Positions 10,749-62,260 of a DNA stretch of 64,000 nucleotides are shown here, piece after piece (position 1 is the first letter of the stretch; every line of letters begins with the position of its first letter). The position numbers were made by a program, and so were the translations under genes. The notes below the pieces were generated by a model. It had not been told where the DNA came from and did not search any database. It saw only the letters and a program-made list of their open reading frames with translations. Source of the DNA: a phage; the sequence record PZ445554.1; one strand, given 5' to 3'.

Positions 10749-11120
10749 TCACTTAAATTTAATGGCTTGAAGAAGACTAATAATTCTCAAGCGACTTCCT
10801 TCATCTTTAACTGTAAAAGAAAGAGGGTCACCAGATTTCATAGTGATAGTGCATTCAAAAGCAAAACCTTCGGGAACTTCTTCGAAGAAGTCAAATTCTT
10901 CATCATAAATTAGAACATTACTCTGAAAACTGTGAAGAATTTTTCCGTCATTTCCAGATGCTGTACTAATCATTGTAACATTATTACCTTTCATATCTTC
11001 AACGATAAATTCGCTTGTAGATATTACAGCATTAATAGAACCATTCCTATAAATAGCAGAAAATAGATATTTCTTTTCTTCACCTTCGCGAATGCGATAT
11101 TTCTTACCGATTTTAAACAT
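10749..11120 (-). CDS. Hypothetical protein (123 aa)
   Basis: ORF track; ATG at 11118-11120 (rev). Confidence 0.55.
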   Translation of the reverse strand: MFKIGKKYRIREGEEKKYLFSAIYRNGSINAVISTSEFIVEDMKGNNVTMISTASGNDGKILHSFQSNVLIYDEEFDFFEEVPEGFAFECTITMKSGDPLSFTVKDEGSRLRIISLLQAIKFK

Positions 11121-15164: not shown

Positions 15165-16484
15165 TCACACATAAAATACATCATAACGACCACGAGTAAC
15201 ACCAACATAAAGAAGTTGTTGAGCCAATTCAGCATCTGCATAATGAATACAAGGCGTATAAATGAAAGCACGGTCTACAGACATGCCCTGTGCTTTATGG
15301 AATGTTGATGCAGGAAGTGCTTTCACTTTACTAAACTGTGATTTAGCATCCCAAAAATCACTCCATGGAGCTTTTCCGCCTTTGTTCCAATTTTTATAAG
15401 TTTCTGCCGTTTTACCTAAAAATAGGTTAAACTTATACAGTTCTTCATCAGATGAAATTATTTTAATCTTTTCACGATAATATTCATCATCGCCATAAGT
15501 TTCTACTGTTAAATCCCAGTGACGAATTAGATATTCTCCAGGAACACCACGAGCTTTAACAAAGGTTGATGTATACTCTGCTTCTATAATACGAACTAAT
15601 TGTCCGTTGTTAAAAATAATTTCTGACACAGGCTTTCCATCAATTTTATATGTTTTAATTAATGGTTCCTGCATTACAATAATTTCACCGACAATAAAAT
15701 CTTTATCAGTTTCAAAAATCTTTTTACGAATAATGCTATTTAACTTATCAACAGATTTATTCGTAAATGCCATTACGCGATTTTCAAACAAATCATCTAG
15801 AGATTTGACGATTGAAAAATAATTTACCATAAAATCGCGTAAAGCGGTATCACCAGTAAATCCACGTACTCCATGCCCGTCAACAACTTTATCATAAATC
15901 CACTTACCGCTACGAACGTCAGTAGCTACATCAATAATAGGAGCATTACTGCGTTTAACTTCAGTGAGTTCACACTGATAAAAATCTTTATGTGTAAAGA
16001 ATGGACTGATATAAGCAGTATTTTCTCCTGGGTCAACAGGTCTAATTTGCTTATTATCACCTATTCCAATTATAGTACACCACGGCGGGATAGTTGAAAG
16101 CAGAATTTTAAATAGCTTTCTATCATACATTGACACTTCGTCGCAGATTAATACCCTGCATTTAGCTAAATCTGGTACTTCCTTCTGCTCGAAGAGGACA
16201 TTTTCTTCATATGTTACTGGGTTAATTTTAAGAATACTATGAATAGTACTCGCTTCTTTCCCTGATAGTTTTGAAAGAATCTTTTTAGCCGCATGCGTAG
16301 GAGCTGCTAAAATAATACCAGTTTCACCCGTAGATATTAAAGCTTCAATGATGAACTTAGTAAGAGTAGTCTTACCAGTACCGGCAGGTCCATTAATAGT
16401 TACATGGTGTTTCTTTTCTTTAATAGCCTTCATAACAATGTTAAAGGCATTTTTCTGGCCTTCGGTCAAATCATCAAATGTCAT
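15165..16484 (-). CDS. dda: Dda DNA helicase (SF1)
   Basis: ORF track 439 aa; Walker A GPAGTGKTT; length equals T4 Dda. Confidence 0.9.
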   Translation of the reverse strand: MTFDDLTEGQKNAFNIVMKAIKEKKHHVTINGPAGTGKTTLTKFIIEALISTGETGIILAAPTHAAKKILSKLSGKEASTIHSILKINPVTYEENVLFEQKEVPDLAKCRVLICDEVSMYDRKLFKILLSTIPPWCTIIGIGDNKQIRPVDPGENTAYISPFFTHKDFYQCELTEVKRSNAPIIDVATDVRSGKWIYDKVVDGHGVRGFTGDTALRDFMVNYFSIVKSLDDLFENRVMAFTNKSVDKLNSIIRKKIFETDKDFIVGEIIVMQEPLIKTYKIDGKPVSEIIFNNGQLVRIIEAEYTSTFVKARGVPGEYLIRHWDLTVETYGDDEYYREKIKIISSDEELYKFNLFLGKTAETYKNWNKGGKAPWSDFWDAKSQFSKVKALPASTFHKAQGMSVDRAFIYTPCIHYADAELAQQLLYVGVTRGRYDVFYV

Positions 16485-16792
16485 CGTAAATTCCCTGCAA
16501 TTGGTATACTAACAATACGCCCAGTATCTAAAATTCGCTGATATAATCTTTGCGTGTCTACGTCAGGCTTAACATGTTTAACTTCTATTTTATTAAACCA
16601 AAATTTACGTGGAGTCTCAACTAATCTTGGAATTCCCTTACCTAAAGCTAGTCGATACTGCTCTTTAAGAGTAGTAAATACTTTATCAGCAATATTCCAT
16701 TCAAAAAATACAGCAGGACGATGTTCATCAAGTGGAACTGGCGCTGTAAATCCGTCTTTGTCTCGGTAAACTATCGCATATACATAAACCAT
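16481..16792 (-). CDS. Hypothetical protein (103 aa)
   Basis: ORF track; stop overlaps dda ATG. Confidence 0.6.
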   Translation of the reverse strand: MVYVYAIVYRDKDGFTAPVPLDEHRPAVFFEWNIADKVFTTLKEQYRLALGKGIPRLVETPRKFWFNKIEVKHVKPDVDTQRLYQRILDTGRIVSIPIAGNLR

Positions 16793-16793
16793 A

Positions 16794-17540
16794 TTATCCT
16801 CGGATAAGTTTAAAAATTGAACAATTTAGCGGGTATCCTCTTTTCAGTTTAAGTTTATCAATAAAAGACAAGTTTTGATACCGCTCTACACCTTGAATAA
16901 TTTTATCACACATATCATATTGCATTTCTGCTTCTGACAACTTTTTCACAATTTTCCAATCCGAGCCTTTAAGAAGAACGTTCAATTTAACAACTTCAGC
17001 GCCTTCTGCTATACGAGAACCATCAATACGAGCTTTAAGTGCTATAATCCTCAGCTTAATGTCAGAGGTCTGTTTTGATTTAGAAAGCTGAGAAATGTGC
17101 TCAATTCGGTTTTCACGTTTTTTCTGTATAGCTTTAATTTGATTATAAGTCTTTTTGATTTTAGCCCATTTCTTTTCATCTAAATTTAGTTTATGAACTT
17201 TTTTCGCAGATGAACGACCAATTCGCAAAGCAAATAAATCCCGTTTTTCAATCAACTCTTCTAAAGTATAATCAGAACGAAATGTATTATACTTTTTCTT
17301 TACTGCAATAACATTCCCTTTAATGTATCCAACGTTATTATCAAAACGTTCTAATGATAATTTCTCTCCTTCAATACGATTATCAAAAGGTTCTCCCGAG
17401 TAAGCACAAACTTTTTGATCTAAAATGTTCTTAATGTAATTGAAGTCTAAGTTAAAATCTTTAGAACGTCTTTTTGCAGATGCCTGAGTATGCTCTAGAC
17501 GACGTTTAATTTTACGAATTTGGTTATTAGACAGCTTCAT
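16794..17540 (-). CDS. Hypothetical basic protein (248 aa); position corresponds to T4 srd (tentative)
   Basis: ORF track; ATG at 17538-17540; Lys/Arg-rich. Confidence 0.6.
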   Translation of the reverse strand: MKLSNNQIRKIKRRLEHTQASAKRRSKDFNLDFNYIKNILDQKVCAYSGEPFDNRIEGEKLSLERFDNNVGYIKGNVIAVKKKYNTFRSDYTLEELIEKRDLFALRIGRSSAKKVHKLNLDEKKWAKIKKTYNQIKAIQKKRENRIEHISQLSKSKQTSDIKLRIIALKARIDGSRIAEGAEVVKLNVLLKGSDWKIVKKLSEAEMQYDMCDKIIQGVERYQNLSFIDKLKLKRGYPLNCSIFKLIRG

Positions 17541-17574
17541 ATTTTTCTCACATCTTACGGACGGTTAACTACTT

Positions 17575-17606
17575 ATACTATAACATTTTTACCTTAACTT
17601 GTAAAC
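17575..17606 (-). promoter_or_regulatory. T4-type early promoter
   Basis: Minus-strand GTTTACAAGTTAAGGTAAAAATGTTATAGTAT. Confidence 0.5.
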
Positions 17607-17663
17607 AACTTTATGTAAAAATGCTTTAAAACTTTCATGGTATAATGAATCTAAGTCCTTCCA

Positions 17664-18266
17664 TTATAGATTAAATCCTTCAAAATCAAGAGTATAGATA
17701 GTATATGTTGAATACTTTTTGTACTCATATCTATCTGCAATTCTAAATACACTTCCAGCTGGTATCATTACTTCTTGTTCATCTGAAACTAATTCCATAT
17801 TACGATAACGATGACTATCCGGAAACTTAAAGTTTGGATTGTATTCTTTACAGCGTAGAGCTTTTATAGCATACTCCTGAAAATTGAATACCATAGGAGC
17901 TTTGAATTCAAAAATAACTTGTGTGTTATATTCTAAACCAGAAGCAAAATGTAGAGCTATATTTTTATCATATGAAGCTGATACGACTTTATCAAATGTA
18001 ATAATATCAATTCCTTGATTTAATACTTGTTTAGTCTCAGCTGGAACACCTCTCCAAAGAGGTTTATCGTTTGGTTCCAAACGAGATTTGATTATTTCAT
18101 TTAACCAAGTATGGTCATCTGGCTTATTAGTAATACAATGAATTAAAAGTTCAATTTCAGATAAATTAAACCCTTCAGAAAGTAATTCTTCACGAATAGA
18201 AGCACGCACCGATGCATCCATTGATTTTATTTTAAAATCTTTTAGTTGCATTACTGAGTATTTCAT
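17664..18266 (-). CDS. modA: ADP-ribosyltransferase ModA
   Basis: ORF track 200 aa; R (PLWRG), S-x-S (VVSASY) and E-x-E (EQEV) elements; tandem paralog of modB. Confidence 0.8.
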   Translation of the reverse strand: MKYSVMQLKDFKIKSMDASVRASIREELLSEGFNLSEIELLIHCITNKPDDHTWLNEIIKSRLEPNDKPLWRGVPAETKQVLNQGIDIITFDKVVSASYDKNIALHFASGLEYNTQVIFEFKAPMVFNFQEYAIKALRCKEYNPNFKFPDSHRYRNMELVSDEQEVMIPAGSVFRIADRYEYKKYSTYTIYTLDFEGFNL

Positions 18267-18886
18267 TCAACTACCTCAATATCATAAACTTTAAATGTTC
18301 CAAATGAATCGTGTAATTTTTCTTTTGAAATAGAAGTTATTCTATACTTTCCAATTGGAATCATCCATTCTTGTTCACGCACAATCATCATTAAGTTATC
18401 AGTACGCTCTGAATCTAATCCATCAGTATCTTCATACGTGTACTTAAACTCAGTATTAGGAGAAGAAAGTATAATATCGCTGATATGGTCAGAATAATTA
18501 AAAGCTTTATTAGTTTTTAAGCGAAGTATTATTTTAGTAAAATATTCAGCGTAAGAAAAAGAACATGCTGTGAGCAAACTAGTAGTAAATGAATCTACTC
18601 TATTCGTTGAAAACACTTCTCCAACTTGTAAATCTTTAATAAGTTCTTCTGTTGATTTTGATATACCACGATATAACTGATAAGGTGATTTAGTTAAATG
18701 CTTTTTAATGATTTTATTCAACTGCCTATGAAGAGCTTCATTCTTTTTGGCTTCCATACATTGCCAAAGAACTGACTGCTCAAAGTCAGTAAATTTTTCA
18801 CAGACCTTTTTATACATATCATATTGAAAATCAACGCTTTCAGCTTTTATAGATAACTGTTCAACATCTGCAAGATTAATAATCAT
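18263..18886 (-). CDS. modB: ADP-ribosyltransferase ModB
   Basis: ORF track 207 aa; paralogous to modA; stop overlaps modA start. Confidence 0.8.
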   Translation of the reverse strand: MIINLADVEQLSIKAESVDFQYDMYKKVCEKFTDFEQSVLWQCMEAKKNEALHRQLNKIIKKHLTKSPYQLYRGISKSTEELIKDLQVGEVFSTNRVDSFTTSLLTACSFSYAEYFTKIILRLKTNKAFNYSDHISDIILSSPNTEFKYTYEDTDGLDSERTDNLMMIVREQEWMIPIGKYRITSISKEKLHDSFGTFKVYDIEVVE

Positions 18887-18910
18887 GATAGCCTCCGTAT
18901 ACTTCAGAAG

Positions 18911-18942
18911 CTATCATATCATCGTTAGAAAGGAAAGTAAAC
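18911..18942 (-). promoter_or_regulatory. T4-type early promoter
   Basis: Minus-strand GTTTACTTTCCTTTCTAACGATGATATGATAG. Confidence 0.5.
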
Positions 18943-18953
18943 AACTTTTTGAA

Positions 18954-19136
18954 TTATTTTGCCCAGGGAGCCCAAGGCGGAGGGTCAAGATGGTATGAAG
19001 CTAGTTCTTCTAGAAGAGCATCTGGGGCTTCAATTCCATAATTCTGTAATACTATACGGTACTCTTTCTTATAATCACTGGAATCATTCTGGTTATTCGT
19101 AGAATGATTATCTTCTAACATCTCAAATAAATCCAT
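18954..19136 (-). CDS. Hypothetical protein (60 aa)
   Basis: ORF track; ATG at 19134-19136. Confidence 0.5.
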   Translation of the reverse strand: MDLFEMLEDNHSTNNQNDSSDYKKEYRIVLQNYGIEAPDALLEELASYHLDPPPWAPWAK

Positions 19137-21335: not shown

Positions 21336-21366
21336 AATAAACTCCTTTATTGTTTAATTACAGGTG

Positions 21367-21374
21367 TATTTATA
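21367..21374 (-). promoter_or_regulatory. T4 late promoter TATAAATA for soc
   Basis: Plus-strand tatttata; minus-strand TATAAATA about 30 nt upstream of soc ATG. Confidence 0.6.
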
Positions 21375-21548
21375 TCAGTCTTCAATGAAAACTTGTGCCA
21401 GGAATTCGTGTTCATCTTGAATTTGTTTATATAAAGCCATTACAGCATTTATATTAGAGCTATCTACTTTAAGTTGATAAGCATACCACTCGTGTAAATT
21501 AATTAAAGCTTTTTGACGTCTAATAAATTCTTCTTTGGATATTTTCAT
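21375..21548 (-). CDS. Hypothetical protein (57 aa), not in ORF track
   Basis: ATGA overlap with upstream ORF; MKISKEEFIRRQKALINLHEWYAYQLKVDSS. Confidence 0.45.
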   Translation of the reverse strand: MKISKEEFIRRQKALINLHEWYAYQLKVDSSNINAVMALYKQIQDEHEFLAQVFIED

Positions 21549-21745
21549 TTTGAATGCTCTATAATTAATTTTAAGGCTTTTTCACTGACAAAAATTTCAT
21601 CAGGACCTTCTTCTACAACCCAATCAACCATACGAAGCTGATTAGATAAGAGCTCGTATGTGAGCTCTTTGTCATAATTTTTAAATAGCTGGTCAATACG
21701 TTTCTTGCGGGCTTTCTTAAGCTGGCGTTTATTTAAACGAGCCAT
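21545..21745 (-). CDS. Hypothetical basic protein (66 aa)
   Basis: ORF track 21545..21748 (TTG); ATG at 21745 overlapping gene 56 stop. Confidence 0.5.
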   Translation of the reverse strand: MARLNKRQLKKARKKRIDQLFKNYDKELTYELLSNQLRMVDWVVEEGPDEIFVSEKALKLIIEHSK

Positions 21746-22263
21746 CAATAACCTCGGTCTTGACGAGCGAAATTTTCAGCATTTTTCAGATAATAAAGTT
21801 TAAAGATTTCTTCAGCTGACATTCCAAGAGCAATGAATTTATTCATGAAAAAGTGAAATTGGTCAATCAGTTCAAATTTAATTTCAAGCTGATCTTCGGG
21901 AGATAAATCTTGAATTTTCTTGGATTGCATTTCAGAATAACGTTTCTTCCAAGGTTTCCATACGGCAGAAGCTTCTTTTTCACCATTACTCATACCACCA
22001 AGAGAAGTATATAGCTCGCGAGTTTCATCTGCGATATAATCGTCTTGGTTTCGCAGCCAAGCAAGAACTTCTCCTGCAGTTTCAAGTGAATCAGGATGAC
22101 GATTTGTTTCTGGTTTATCATTAGCCAAACGAATCTGTAAATGCCGCTGCATATCAAGCATAACCTGCAGTGGGTCAATATTGTGCATAATATTCTCAGC
22201 ATATGCACGAGTTGCTTTATCAACACCTTCGATCAAATGAGCACATTCATTAAAGTGAGCCAT
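21745..22263 (-). CDS. 56: dCTPase-dUTPase gp56 (MazG-like)
   Basis: ORF track 21745..22371; start at internal ATG (MAHFNECAHLIEGVDKA) after AAAGGA, giving 172 aa as recalled for T4 gp56. Confidence 0.85.
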   Translation of the reverse strand: MAHFNECAHLIEGVDKATRAYAENIMHNIDPLQVMLDMQRHLQIRLANDKPETNRHPDSLETAGEVLAWLRNQDDYIADETRELYTSLGGMSNGEKEASAVWKPWKKRYSEMQSKKIQDLSPEDQLEIKFELIDQFHFFMNKFIALGMSAEEIFKLYYLKNAENFARQDRGY

Positions 22264-22336
22264 TATTTTTCCTTTCAATTCATGGATTAATAGATTAATT
22301 ATACAATAAATATATAAAGCAATAAGGAGGATATAT

Positions 22337-22537
22337 ATGGTACAAAAATTAATGGCACTTGTTAATGCCATAAAAGGTAATAAAAAACGTATAGCTTTTA
22401 CTATTTCTGCTATGGTAGGAATTTTACTCTGGAACTTTATTCTATCACCTGTTGCAATTGCACATGGTATTAATATTCCAGTAGTTACTCTTGATACATT
22501 CGTAGATTTAGCATTTGCTTTAGTTGGGTTAATTTAA
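22337..22537 (+). CDS. Small hydrophobic protein (66 aa) on plus strand in the 56-61 interval
   Basis: ORF track; strong AGGAGG Shine-Dalgarno 7 nt before ATG; two hydrophobic segments; converges on gene 61 3-prime end. Confidence 0.45.
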   Translation: MVQKLMALVNAIKGNKKRIAFTISAMVGILLWNFILSPVAIAHGINIPVVTLDTFVDLAFALVGLI

Positions 22538-23562
22538 ATCTTGGCATATTTAGATAGCCGCATTTTAGCCATTAACCCCTGGGCAATATTATTTTTCATA
22601 TATTCCATAATTTGTTCAGGGGTTGCACCTTCCTTTCTAATCATATCATTAACATCTTTTGATTTCCAGGGAGATTTATCCCAAAACATAACCCTTTCTC
22701 CTGCATCAACTAATTTAGTCATTCGCTTAATAGTGTCAGGATGACGAGGTTCATTATCTAAAACCCACACGCGTCTATCTTTAAATGGAACAATTTCTAG
22801 GTCTAATTGACCACCCGTAATAGCTATACCATTTTCAATAAAAAGTGAATCTATAGGTCCTTCTAGAACATATACATCACCATCTTTAACTCGTTCGACT
22901 CCATAGATTTTTGTTGCCTCAGGATAAGCTTTGATGGTGATATATTTTTGAGGAGCATCTTTCTTTAATGCACGTCCTTGAAAAGACTCAGCTTTTCCAT
23001 TAGCATTATAAATTGGAATAACAAGACGAGGCTCAGGTATTTCCTTTTTATATGTTCCTGGTGCTATGCTATTAACTAATTTAGGCCATTCAGTTGTAAA
23101 CCAAAGATATTTCCATTTATCCTTTGGAATACAACGAGCTTTTACGTATTTTATAATTGGATGGTCTTCCGCCAGTTTATCTAATCTAACACATGACGGA
23201 AGAGATTTAATTATTTTCTTCTCAGGTTGTTTAGGAAGTTCTTTAGGTTTTTCTACTGGACGACTTTTACCTTTTTCTTTTCTTATTTCAAAGATATACT
23301 CACGATATAAATCAGGTTCAAACTCCTTTAAATATATTCCGATTGGTGCATGATAGTTACAGTTATAACAATGAATATTTCCTTCATTATTATCACCATA
23401 ATACCATCCACGAGCTTTATTCTGGTCGGTTTTTGAATCTCCACAAACAGGGCATCTAAACCGTAATTTAAAAGTTGAACTATTATTTACTTGTGTGAAT
23501 TTAGGTAAATGAGCTAATGCACGGTATGCAAACTCATTATCAATCCAAGGTATTGATGACAT
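22534..23562 (-). CDS. 61: DNA primase gp61
   Basis: ORF track 342 aa; zinc ribbon CPVCGDSK...CYNC; N-terminus MSSIPWIDNEFAYRALAHL matches recalled T4 gp61. Confidence 0.9.
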   Translation of the reverse strand: MSSIPWIDNEFAYRALAHLPKFTQVNNSSTFKLRFRCPVCGDSKTDQNKARGWYYGDNNEGNIHCYNCNYHAPIGIYLKEFEPDLYREYIFEIRKEKGKSRPVEKPKELPKQPEKKIIKSLPSCVRLDKLAEDHPIIKYVKARCIPKDKWKYLWFTTEWPKLVNSIAPGTYKKEIPEPRLVIPIYNANGKAESFQGRALKKDAPQKYITIKAYPEATKIYGVERVKDGDVYVLEGPIDSLFIENGIAITGGQLDLEIVPFKDRRVWVLDNEPRHPDTIKRMTKLVDAGERVMFWDKSPWKSKDVNDMIRKEGATPEQIMEYMKNNIAQGLMAKMRLSKYAKI

Positions 23563-48870: not shown

Positions 48871-48912
48871 AATAAAACCCTTACCTTAAATAGATAAGGG
48901 TATTTATTATTT

Positions 48913-61325: not shown

Positions 61326-61712
61326 TTATTCGAGGGAAAGAAGATACTTACTCTGGTAAAACATTCCAGTAATATCATCTATCGTGCTTTGAATGGCTGG
61401 AGGCATTTCTTTATAAATGCTGTTAGATTGGTCTAGTATACGATCAATCATTTTAATTGTGTCGGTAGGAAGTTTACTGGCATTTGGAATTGAAGGTGTG
61501 TATTTTCTACCAGAATACCCCAAATATTGCTCACCAAATTTATCAATCAAATCTGGCAACTCGGAGAAAATAAAATCGTATGCTTTGTGTCTAGCATAAC
61601 TTTTAGTTTCAAAATGCGCAGAATGAAAATAAGCTTGTGCAGCCATTAATAAACCTAAGTATTCATCTGCCTTTGAAGGTTTTCCACTTTGTGAAAAGTC
61701 GCTGAATTTCAT
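61326..61712 (-). CDS. Hypothetical protein (128 aa), downstream of rI
   Basis: ORF track; ATGA overlap with rI stop. Confidence 0.55.
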
Positions 61713-62002
61713 TCAGTCTCCAATTTAATATTCATAATTCTAGCGTATGATTGTGCCATCTCCGCGCCTCGTTCTATACATTCAAAATCAGAAGAGCACG
61801 GGTCATTTTTATAGGTCGTTCTCATAAAACTATAGAATTGTTCAGACGATTCTACGCTTTTATTTTCAAAAAGCATATAAACGTGTCTAATACCAGATTC
61901 CATAAATTTATCAAAATGAGGATCGACATTCGCTTCAATCGGTGGAGATAAAGCAAACGCTAATCCTAGCATGGCAAATAGTGCCGTTGCTTTTAAGGCC
62001 AT
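61709..62002 (-). CDS. rI: Lysis-inhibition regulator RI
   Basis: ORF track 97 aa; signal-anchor MALKATALFAMLGLAFALSPPIEA; sequence matches recalled T4 RI. Confidence 0.85.
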   Translation of the reverse strand: MALKATALFAMLGLAFALSPPIEANVDPHFDKFMESGIRHVYMLFENKSVESSEQFYSFMRTTYKNDPCSSDFECIERGAEMAQSYARIMNIKLETE

Positions 62003-62014
62003 AAAGGCCTCCTA

Positions 62015-62227
62015 TCATTTTTGTCCTGTATTTACTTTATGCCGATGCACGGCCTTAACTTTATCAAGGTATTTTTCAAAATTTCGCAATCTAGTATAGT
62101 CTGCCGGAGATTGATTGAGTGATACTTCTCGACGCAAAGCTGAAATAACATTTCCAACTTCCCTACGAATTTCATCTAATTGAAGCACAGTAAGATTGCG
62201 AAGTTGCTTTTCAGTTAATTGTAGCAT
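62015..62227 (-). CDS. Hypothetical protein (70 aa)
   Basis: ORF track; ATG 25 nt downstream of a TATAAATA box. Confidence 0.5.
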
Positions 62228-62252: not shown

Positions 62253-62260
62253 TATTTATA
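62253..62260 (-). promoter_or_regulatory. T4 late promoter TATAAATA upstream of rI region
   Basis: Plus-strand tatttata (coordinates +/-1). Confidence 0.5.

Follow-up and report, generated by a model that had tools for sequence, protein, structure and literature searches.

In bacteriophage T4 the genes around the primase locus are arranged in the order 56, encoding a dCTPase (16270..16785), dam (16846..17625), a 309-bp unannotated gap, and 61, encoding DNA primase (17935..18963). In the related phages RB69 and RB32 a small gene, RB69ORF029w or RB32ORF030w (RB14ORF31), converges on gene 61 from the opposite strand. This report concerns the same gene in a Tequatrovirus, sequence record PZ445554.1, of which a stretch of 64,000 nt, referred to here as the window, was analysed. 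In the window the gene is an open reading frame (ORF) at 22337..22537 on the plus strand. It encodes a protein of 66 residues and shows no substantive difference from its RB69 and RB32 counterparts in strand, length, or position. The 309-bp gap of T4 holds the ORF as well (NC_000866 17738–17938), with two amino-acid differences.

The late promoters of T4 provide a second basis for comparison. Among 50 that have been listed, 32 are perfect matches to TATAAATA, and the commonest variant, with A at position −13, occurs at nine sites (Geiduschek and Kassavetis, PMC2988020). The late promoter of soc, P(L)15.32, is annotated in the T4 record X01416.

To judge from comparisons of sequences, the ORF at 22337..22537 is a real and conserved phage gene and not a chance frame. 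It is very likely that it is at once a genuine gene, expressed late in infection, and the source of a membrane protein.

A Conserved Gene Convergent on the Primase Gene

The ORF was identified from the list of open frames, by homology, and by the signature of purifying selection. It begins with ATG at 22337 and ends with TAA at 22535–22537, and its product is MVQKLMALVNAIKGNKKRIAFTISAMVGILLWNFILSPVAIAHGINIPVVTLDTFVDLAFALVGLI. The Shine–Dalgarno (SD) sequence AGGAGG occupies 22325..22330 on the plus strand, 6 nt (22331–22336) from the start codon. Both neighbours were assigned from the ORF list and by comparison with relatives: gene 56 (21745..22263, minus strand) is divergent from the ORF, and gene 61 (22534..23562, minus strand) is convergent with it. 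A listed frame of 208 residues is gene 56 extended upstream. The interval between genes 56 and 61, 22264–22533, measures 270 bp. The stop codon of the ORF overlaps that of gene 61 (TAA, complement of 22534–22536), and the two coding sequences share 4 nt, 22534–22537.

The initial annotation had described a genuine, lone plus-strand gene with a strong SD sequence, converging on the 3′ end of gene 61 within an interval of about 270 bp, and this description stands. Throughout the window the ORF is the sole plus-strand case in which AGGAGG, GGAGG, or AGGAG is followed after 4–9 nt by ATG and a frame of at least 40 codons. If any 4-mer SD core is accepted, there are three plus-strand candidates versus 72 on the minus strand. 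In RB14, the closest annotated relative, the first 50 kb contain only two plus-strand coding sequences, the ORF itself and one of 28 residues. The length of the ORF is not significant by itself, as many spurious plus-strand frames of 30–105 residues lie nearby.

Evidence for coding comes from the pattern of substitution. Bases 22100–22700 of the window are 98.8% identical to RB14 and 98.0% identical to T6; with this 601-bp segment as query, 519 phage records match, and 295 of them cover at least 80% of it in one place. Searches with tblastn give 693 phage records that encode the protein; identity is 90% or higher in 503 of these and 44–56% in Mosigvirus and Gaprivervirus. The protein is 100% identical in RB14 and many Tequatrovirus records, and 54–55% identical to RB69ORF029w. 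By Nei–Gojobori counts, nine synonymous and four non-synonymous changes within Tequatrovirus correspond to a ratio of non-synonymous to synonymous change (omega) of 0.12. Between genera the proportion of synonymous differences (pS) is saturated at 0.6–0.8 (about 0.75), and the proportion of non-synonymous differences (pN) is about 0.31–0.35. The retention of the amino-acid sequence in the face of saturation at synonymous sites argues that the ORF is a real coding gene. The product matches PHROG 2024 (“unknown function”) with an expect value (E) of 1.4e-31, residues 2–66 aligning with positions 1–65 of the 65-position profile, and all 11 diverse relatives tested match the same profile.

Members of the family are known from ten or more genera of T-even-like phages, and in every case the gene converges on gene 61. 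A plus-strand ORF in this orientation was located in Tequatro-, Mosig-, Gapriver-, Dhaka-, Marfa-, Kanagawa-, Mosuguk-, Karam- and Jiaodavirus, and the arrangement in which it abuts or overlaps gene 61 on the strand opposite the early genes was seen in 13 other lineages. The initial annotation had named, as a refutation, relatives with the same compact interval but an unconserved ORF; the outcome is the opposite, since the ORF keeps the same position in many genera.

Gaprivervirus VR26 carries two tandem copies (2495–2901 of the extracted locus), one from each of two subfamilies. These paralogues are only 22% identical to each other, yet both keep the W-N, P, G and P residues that are characteristic of the family. 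Orthologues of the second-copy type are found in Dhakavirus JS10, Marfavirus, Kanagawavirus, Mosugukvirus PM2, Karamvirus CkP1 and Jiaodavirus KpV477, and also in Salmonella phages such as SEA1. The gene as such is not new: hundreds of genomes already list it as a hypothetical protein.

A Putative Late Promoter

A putative −10 element of the T4 late type, AATAAATA, precedes the ORF at 22305..22312 on the plus strand, and was recognized from its sequence and its conservation. It matches TATAAATA at seven of eight positions and corresponds to the A(−13) variant. The core of the T4 late promoter, the heptamer ATAAATA, is found at 22306–22312, with its first base 31 nt upstream of the ATG. Promoters of this class require no −35 element, and the −10 octamer is placed some 6 nt upstream of the transcription start. 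No sigma-70-like promoter was found upstream of the ORF on the plus strand, and the early and middle transcripts of T4 are all of opposite polarity (PMC2988020).

The motif has been kept where its surroundings have not. In 12 of 13 lineages ATAAATA starts 20–31 nt before the ATG, within flanks that are otherwise unalignable; in the thirteenth, CkP1, its place is taken by ATTAAATA. The full TATAAATA occurs in four lineages and AATAAATA in another four, the source phage included. Only two 7-mers are found in at least 10 of the 13 upstream regions, namely ATAAATA (12) and GGAGGAT (10), the latter being the shared SD sequence. In T4 ATAAATA is retained even though it lies 0.85 kb from the middle promoter of gene 56, which argues that the motif serves the plus strand.

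Counts over the window point in the same direction. ATAAATA is depleted about 7-fold, with six copies on both strands together versus 41 ± 6 in shuffled sequences, a depletion that would be expected if stray late promoters were selected against. In four of the six copies the end of the motif lies 24–30 nt before an ATG that is preceded by an SD sequence. A motif scan places these before soc (21367–21373, minus strand), before gene 49, which encodes endonuclease VII (48901–48907, minus strand, where the octamer is likewise AATAAATA), before rI.-1/rI (62253–62259, minus strand, within a perfect TATAAATA at 62253–62260), and before the ORF. The late units of soc, gene 49 and rI.-1/rI thus have the same layout as the ORF unit: (T/A)ATAAATA, a distance of 24–30 nt, and an SD sequence with its ATG. 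They differ in lying on the early (minus) strand, whereas the ORF unit is on the opposite strand, is convergent on an early gene, and has a promoter that is predicted.

The other two copies found in the scan, at 11049 and 12955 on the plus strand, have no plausible ORF behind them. They could start antisense late transcripts or be due to chance. In the rI unit (61709..62227, minus strand), rI itself, encoding an antiholin of 97 residues, occupies 61709..62002, and the upstream rI.-1 encodes 70 residues.

From these features we infer a gp55-dependent late promoter for the ORF, which would give a leader of about 19 nt. The ORF would have its own promoter of the T4 late type, in which host RNA polymerase, together with gp55, gp33 and the gp45 clamp, reads AATAAATA; transcription would start near 22318 and only after DNA replication has begun. 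The leader is predicted to be unstructured, being unpaired in the minimum-energy fold. An unstructured leader of 19 nt and a consensus AGGAGG 6 nt before the ATG would be expected to support efficient translation.

Predicted Topology and Conserved Residues

The initial annotation had proposed a hydrophobic protein of two helices. The first of these segments is upheld as a conserved membrane span; the second, at the C terminus, is short (residues 52–63 in the predicted structure) and only weakly hydrophobic in most relatives. Codons 19–42 (22391..22462, plus strand) encode what appears, from alignments, hydropathy, structure prediction, and TMHMM analysis of the RB69 orthologue, to be a single conserved transmembrane helix. 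Residues 19–41 have an average Kyte–Doolittle value of 2.0, and the single span reported by TMHMM for RB69ORF029w covers residues 21–41 (Nolan 2006 supplement). An AlphaFold 2 (AF2) model built on a 30-sequence alignment consists of a helix at residues 3–42, a loop at 43–51, and a 12-residue helix at 52–63, with a mean predicted local distance difference test score of 75.

Charge is distributed asymmetrically about the span. The N terminus, MVQKLMALVNAIKGNKKR, has a net charge of +5, and the tail after G44 a net charge of −2. This polarity is kept in all 15 members compared, with +1 to +6 at the N terminus and −2 to 0 in the C-terminal tail. The hydrophobicity of the tail varies, from 1.7–2.4 in the Tequatro/Mosig/Gapriver type versus 0.5–1.4 elsewhere. 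We infer a single-pass inner-membrane protein with N-in/C-out topology and a short interfacial C-terminal helix, and not a two-span hairpin. Bitopic proteins of this orientation have a single hydrophobic span of some 20 residues and keep their positively charged flank in the cytoplasm. The helix rich in lysine and arginine at the N terminus would be cytoplasmic, one transmembrane helix would extend from about residue 19 to 42, and the C-terminal tail of about 22 residues would be periplasmic, ending in the short helix.

The residues under the strictest conservation are found at one end of this helix. W32, N33 and P38 are invariant in the 30-sequence alignment, and A40, G44 and P48 are each conserved in 90% or more of the sequences. 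W32-N33, P38 and A40 belong to the helix, and G44 and P48 follow just after it, in an HG..P loop. The resulting motif, W-N-x4-P-x-A-x3-G-x3-P, comes after a basic N terminus and marks the outer end of the single hydrophobic span. Because W32, N33, P38, A40, G44 and P48 are grouped where the helix reaches its outer end and in the adjoining loop, the protein may make a specific contact with another membrane protein and not form an unspecific pore; conservation of this kind is typically seen at specific protein contacts more than in pore formers.

A Possible Role in a Late Envelope-Associated Step

Searches for homologues of established function lead back to the family itself. Pfam returned nothing at E values up to 10 for the ORF and five family members, and among 11 members NCBIfam gave two single-member noise hits only. 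A HMMER search of 1.84 billion cluster representatives found three real clusters and a few fragments, all of them phage relatives. Three long proteins matched in the same search were discarded as artefacts of composition or repeats; the two that were inspected are highly repetitive. A profile search of a 5.8-billion-protein set gave 81 hits, all of 41–74 residues and with no bacterial homologues or informative names; the long contigs among them are all of T4-like size. When the AF2 model was compared with viral structures by Foldseek, only family members scored and the remainder had E > 0.4, although a helical model of 66 residues carries little shape information for fold searches. In the literature, no paper was found that names the ORF, except for the entry in the TMHMM table of the Nolan 2006 supplement.

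The names attached to family members in databases are “Holin,” “putative head morphogenesis protein,” “DNA packaging ATPase,” and “dCTP pyrophosphatase.” These labels are mutually contradictory and unsupported, and they were set aside as annotation noise.

The small inner-membrane proteins of T4 include Imm (83 residues), RI (97 residues) and Ac (51 residues). As a matter of general knowledge the ORF product may work like these, resembling them in small size, membrane location and accessory character. It is not a member of their families, for no sequence or fold similarity to Imm, RI or Ac is detectable. Moreover, imm, which is annotated in RB14, differs from the ORF in promoter class and in strand.

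The best guess is that the product modulates a late process associated with the envelope, a suggestion drawn from the pattern of conserved residues, which points to a specific contact. The step most likely to be affected would be lysis timing, lysis inhibition, or membrane-bound prohead assembly. None of the specific roles considered rates higher than a doubtful possibility. It is conceivable, though rather unlikely, that a late inner-membrane protein missing from the T4 gene list since 1984, when the region was first sequenced, partners the T holin and RI in lysis inhibition, or gp20 and gp40 in prohead initiation, and that its transcript serves as a late antisense switch for primase.

Several observations weigh against the picture of a late membrane protein with an envelope-associated role. 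No transcript, 5′-end, ribosome-profiling or proteomic data for the ORF were found in the literature, and late timing and translation are deduced from sequence only. A hidden Markov model (HMM) called no late promoter upstream of RB69ORF029w (Nolan et al. 2006). An A stands in place of the first T of TATAAATA in the promoter of the ORF, and among the 12 lineages with ATAAATA that T is replaced in 8. Furthermore, ATAAATA falls inside the spacer of a middle promoter on the minus strand, and its local conservation could partly stem from that promoter. In TH40, a relative of VR26, the second copy of the gene (about 2700–2810 of the extracted locus) has decayed by deletion and stop codons, and at least one copy must therefore be dispensable. 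Finally, since no informative homology was found, any physiological role is a guess.

Alternative Explanations

It is possible to argue that the RNA and not the protein is the principal product. Late antisense transcription, or collision between polymerases, would then shut down primase and the early genes upstream of it, with the peptide secondary. The layout of the locus lends itself to such a scheme. No intrinsic plus-strand terminator was found from the ORF to 23700, and late transcripts would probably read antisense into gene 61; the overlapping stop codons make any read-through antisense to gene 61 at once. The ORF keeps its place beside gene 61 whatever stands on its other flank, and several sites are known in T4 at which both strands are transcribed but at different times (PMC2988020). 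Selection at the level of amino acids, together with the invariant residues, shows instead that the protein itself is maintained, and in KpV477 read-through would be blocked by a strong hairpin that separates the ORF from gene 61. An RNA as the main function thus seems unlikely. The two roles are not mutually exclusive, and an RNA role in addition to that of the protein is possible.

Some further observations bear on the end of the transcript. The region after the ORF stop folds better than shuffled sequences (z = −2.3) but has no adjacent T-run, and a terminator was therefore not called. Jiaodavirus KpV477 lacks the overlap between the ORF and gene 61, and the hairpin that separates them, GGGGC-tttg-GCCCC (about 1660–1685 of the extracted locus), resembles a bidirectional terminator; in most other lineages the stops overlap and there is no terminator. 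Rfam gave sub-threshold noise only for 22100–22800, and a known non-coding RNA was rejected as an explanation of the interval.

A second alternative accepts the gene but assigns it to early or middle expression from a plus-strand promoter that depends on sigma-70 or MotA. The base other than T at the start of the late consensus and the scan of RB69 by HMM, which made no late call at this site, would be in keeping with it, and the AT-rich spacer could conceal a weak −10 element. This is nevertheless quite improbable, as the plus strand upstream of the ORF has no sigma-70-like site and ATAAATA stands at the distance of a late promoter in 12 of 13 lineages, four of them with a perfect TATAAATA.

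The reading of the ORF product as a holin or a pinholin-like lysis protein has a precedent in the databases, since one UniProt entry, for the orthologue in phage OE5505, is so labelled, the label “Holin” occurring once in UniRef/BFVD. Class II and III holins and pinholins, such as S21 (68–71 residues), resemble the ORF product in size, hydrophobicity and probable late expression. In Tequatrovirus, moreover, the C-terminal segment (Kyte–Doolittle 1.76) could be read as a second span. The resemblance does not extend further. No Pfam holin family is matched at E up to 10 by the five members, NCBIfam gives only noise, and the fold search returns only the protein's own family. Holins of these classes differ from the ORF product, which has one conserved span only and no charged C-terminal tail; it ends in ...FALVGLI, with no basic residues. 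In most genera the C-terminal helix, of about 12 residues, is weakly hydrophobic. The neighbouring genes encode primase and dCTPase and not an endolysin, and the remaining database labels of the family contradict one another. T-even phages already possess a holin, T, and the antiholin RI is encoded in the window at 61709..62002. A holin is therefore a decidedly unlikely identity for the product.

That the ORF is a chance frame in an interval whose only functions are regulatory, serving the 3′ end or terminator of gene 61 and the middle promoter or oriA primer promoter of gene 56, can be dismissed as extremely unlikely: spurious plus-strand frames of like length are common in the AT-rich DNA of this region, the interval does carry a mot box and −10 element and a terminator-like hairpin on the minus strand, and the ORF is unannotated in the T4 reference records and JS10, but omega values of 0.1–0.4 and synonymous saturation with retention of the amino-acid sequence already contradict it, frame, length, SD sequence and motif are kept in more than ten genera with differing flanks, a diverged tandem paralogue exists, and the regulatory elements span only 22298–22371 and not the whole 201-bp frame.

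A Variable Junction and the dam Polymorphism

With the ORF taken as a conserved gene that is probably expressed late, the history of its surroundings can be considered. The side facing gene 61 is constant and the side facing gene 56 is not. Nothing lies between the ORF and gene 56 in the source phage, RB14, RB69, JS10 and PM2. In T4 this place is occupied by dam, in Kosakonia phage 305 by a homing endonuclease gene and a small ORF, in KLB31 by a MazG-like ORF, and in Marfa, NIH-6, Q7622, CkP1 and KpV477 by other hypothetical ORFs. Among T4-like phages that are more distantly related, the ORF is absent from Muldoonvirus, Krischvirus, Slopekvirus KP27 and Pseudotevenvirus Margaery, where gene 56 follows 61 after 7–36 nt and leaves no space for it, and from this locus in Acinetobacter Lazarusvirus, where another minus-strand gene comes directly after 61.

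The simplest reading is that the ORF and its own promoter entered the 61–56 junction in an ancestor of the T-even-like phages, and that the junction then became a hotspot for insertion. The locus would be an insertion-prone slot in which the gene always abuts the 3′ end of 61 and the side toward gene 56 is free to vary.

The initial annotation had placed additional T4 genes (the oriA/69/dam region) near the 56–61 locus and suggested that this phage lacks them. This was right for dam and wrong for gene 69 (segF), which in T4 lies between soc and 56. The suggested loss is likewise sustained in part: dam is missing from the 56–61 interval and segF from between soc and 56, but the oriA primer promoter is retained. 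A search for a Dam-like methyltransferase, which had been proposed there, was made within the window; tblastn with T4 Dam gave no match better than E = 2 in the 64 kb, and none in RB14 1–50000, with T4 itself as positive control at E = 7e-175. The slot is the one occupied in T4, where the flanks of dam match the source phage on both sides; the 780-bp dam is missing in the source phage, as in RB14, T6 and RB69. A Dam of T4 type (at least 90% identity) is found in 182 phage records, versus 503 that have the ORF at this level. By these counts, and by the 295 of 519 matching records in which at least 80% of the 601-bp query is covered in one place, the lack of dam at the 56–61 locus is a common, ordinary polymorphism.

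Annotation in T4 and Its Consequences

The ORF is unannotated in the T4 records AF158101, NC_000866 and X01416 (1984), and in the reference record of JS10, where it occupies 1501–1701 of the extracted locus. It is annotated as a hypothetical protein in a re-annotated T4 derivative and in BASEL-collection records. T4 is the reference for a very large group of phages, and its curated records AF158101 and NC_000866 omit a conserved gene. Because of this omission, arrays, proteomics searches and knock-down libraries built on the T4 annotation will have passed over the gene. Shotgun proteomics would in any case tend to miss the protein, for which the predicted tryptic products are one ordinary peptide (LMALVNAIK) and a hydrophobic fragment of 48 residues.

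If the product is a late membrane factor, it adds a component to the envelope and lysis stage of T-even infection; if it is not, the practical gain is a corrected annotation. In either case an insertion hotspot has been documented between the ORF and gene 56, holding dam, a homing endonuclease gene or a MazG-like gene according to the phage. The contributions of the analysis are the case for a late promoter, the predicted single-pass topology with its motif, the invariant linkage to 61 beside a hotspot, and the finding that the T4 reference annotation omits the gene. Otherwise the gene is an ordinary one, catalogued before, and the gap in its annotation is modest.

Neighbouring Elements on the Minus Strand

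The region upstream of the ORF also serves gene 56. A MotA-type middle promoter (22298..22322, minus strand), recognized by its similarity to P(M)16.53 of T4, consists of a mot box, TTGCTTT, at 22316–22322, a 12-bp spacer, and a −10 element, TATAAT, at 22298–22303. The mot box and −10 element of P(M)16.53 are annotated in X01416, and this promoter has been linked to priming at oriA in the literature and in the oriA note of the T4 record. Two temporal classes of promoter overlap at this point, the putative late −10 element (22305–22312, plus strand) lying inside the spacer of the gene 56 middle promoter. In T4 the insertion of dam puts the two 0.85 kb apart.

A terminator-like hairpin of 8 bp, followed by TAATTTTTGT, is present on the minus strand at 22352..22371, within codons 6–12 of the ORF (fold z-score −1.9). 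The gene 61 stop codon lies about 165 nt upstream of it; T4 has an identical hairpin, and in RB69 none is evident. Transcription of gene 61 could possibly stop here, before the middle promoter of gene 56 is reached.

On the other side of gene 56, the stretch between soc and 56 (21336–21744, minus strand) holds two small ORFs in place of the T4 homing endonuclease gene segF (the old gene 69). One, of 57 residues, occupies 21375..21548 and the other, of 67 residues, 21545..21748, both on the minus strand and both taken from the ORF list; only the second is annotated in RB14. The 3′ half of this stretch matches T2 and T6 at about 88–94%. Given the differences at segF and dam, gene 56 is therefore flanked on both sides by insertion–deletion polymorphisms relative to T4.

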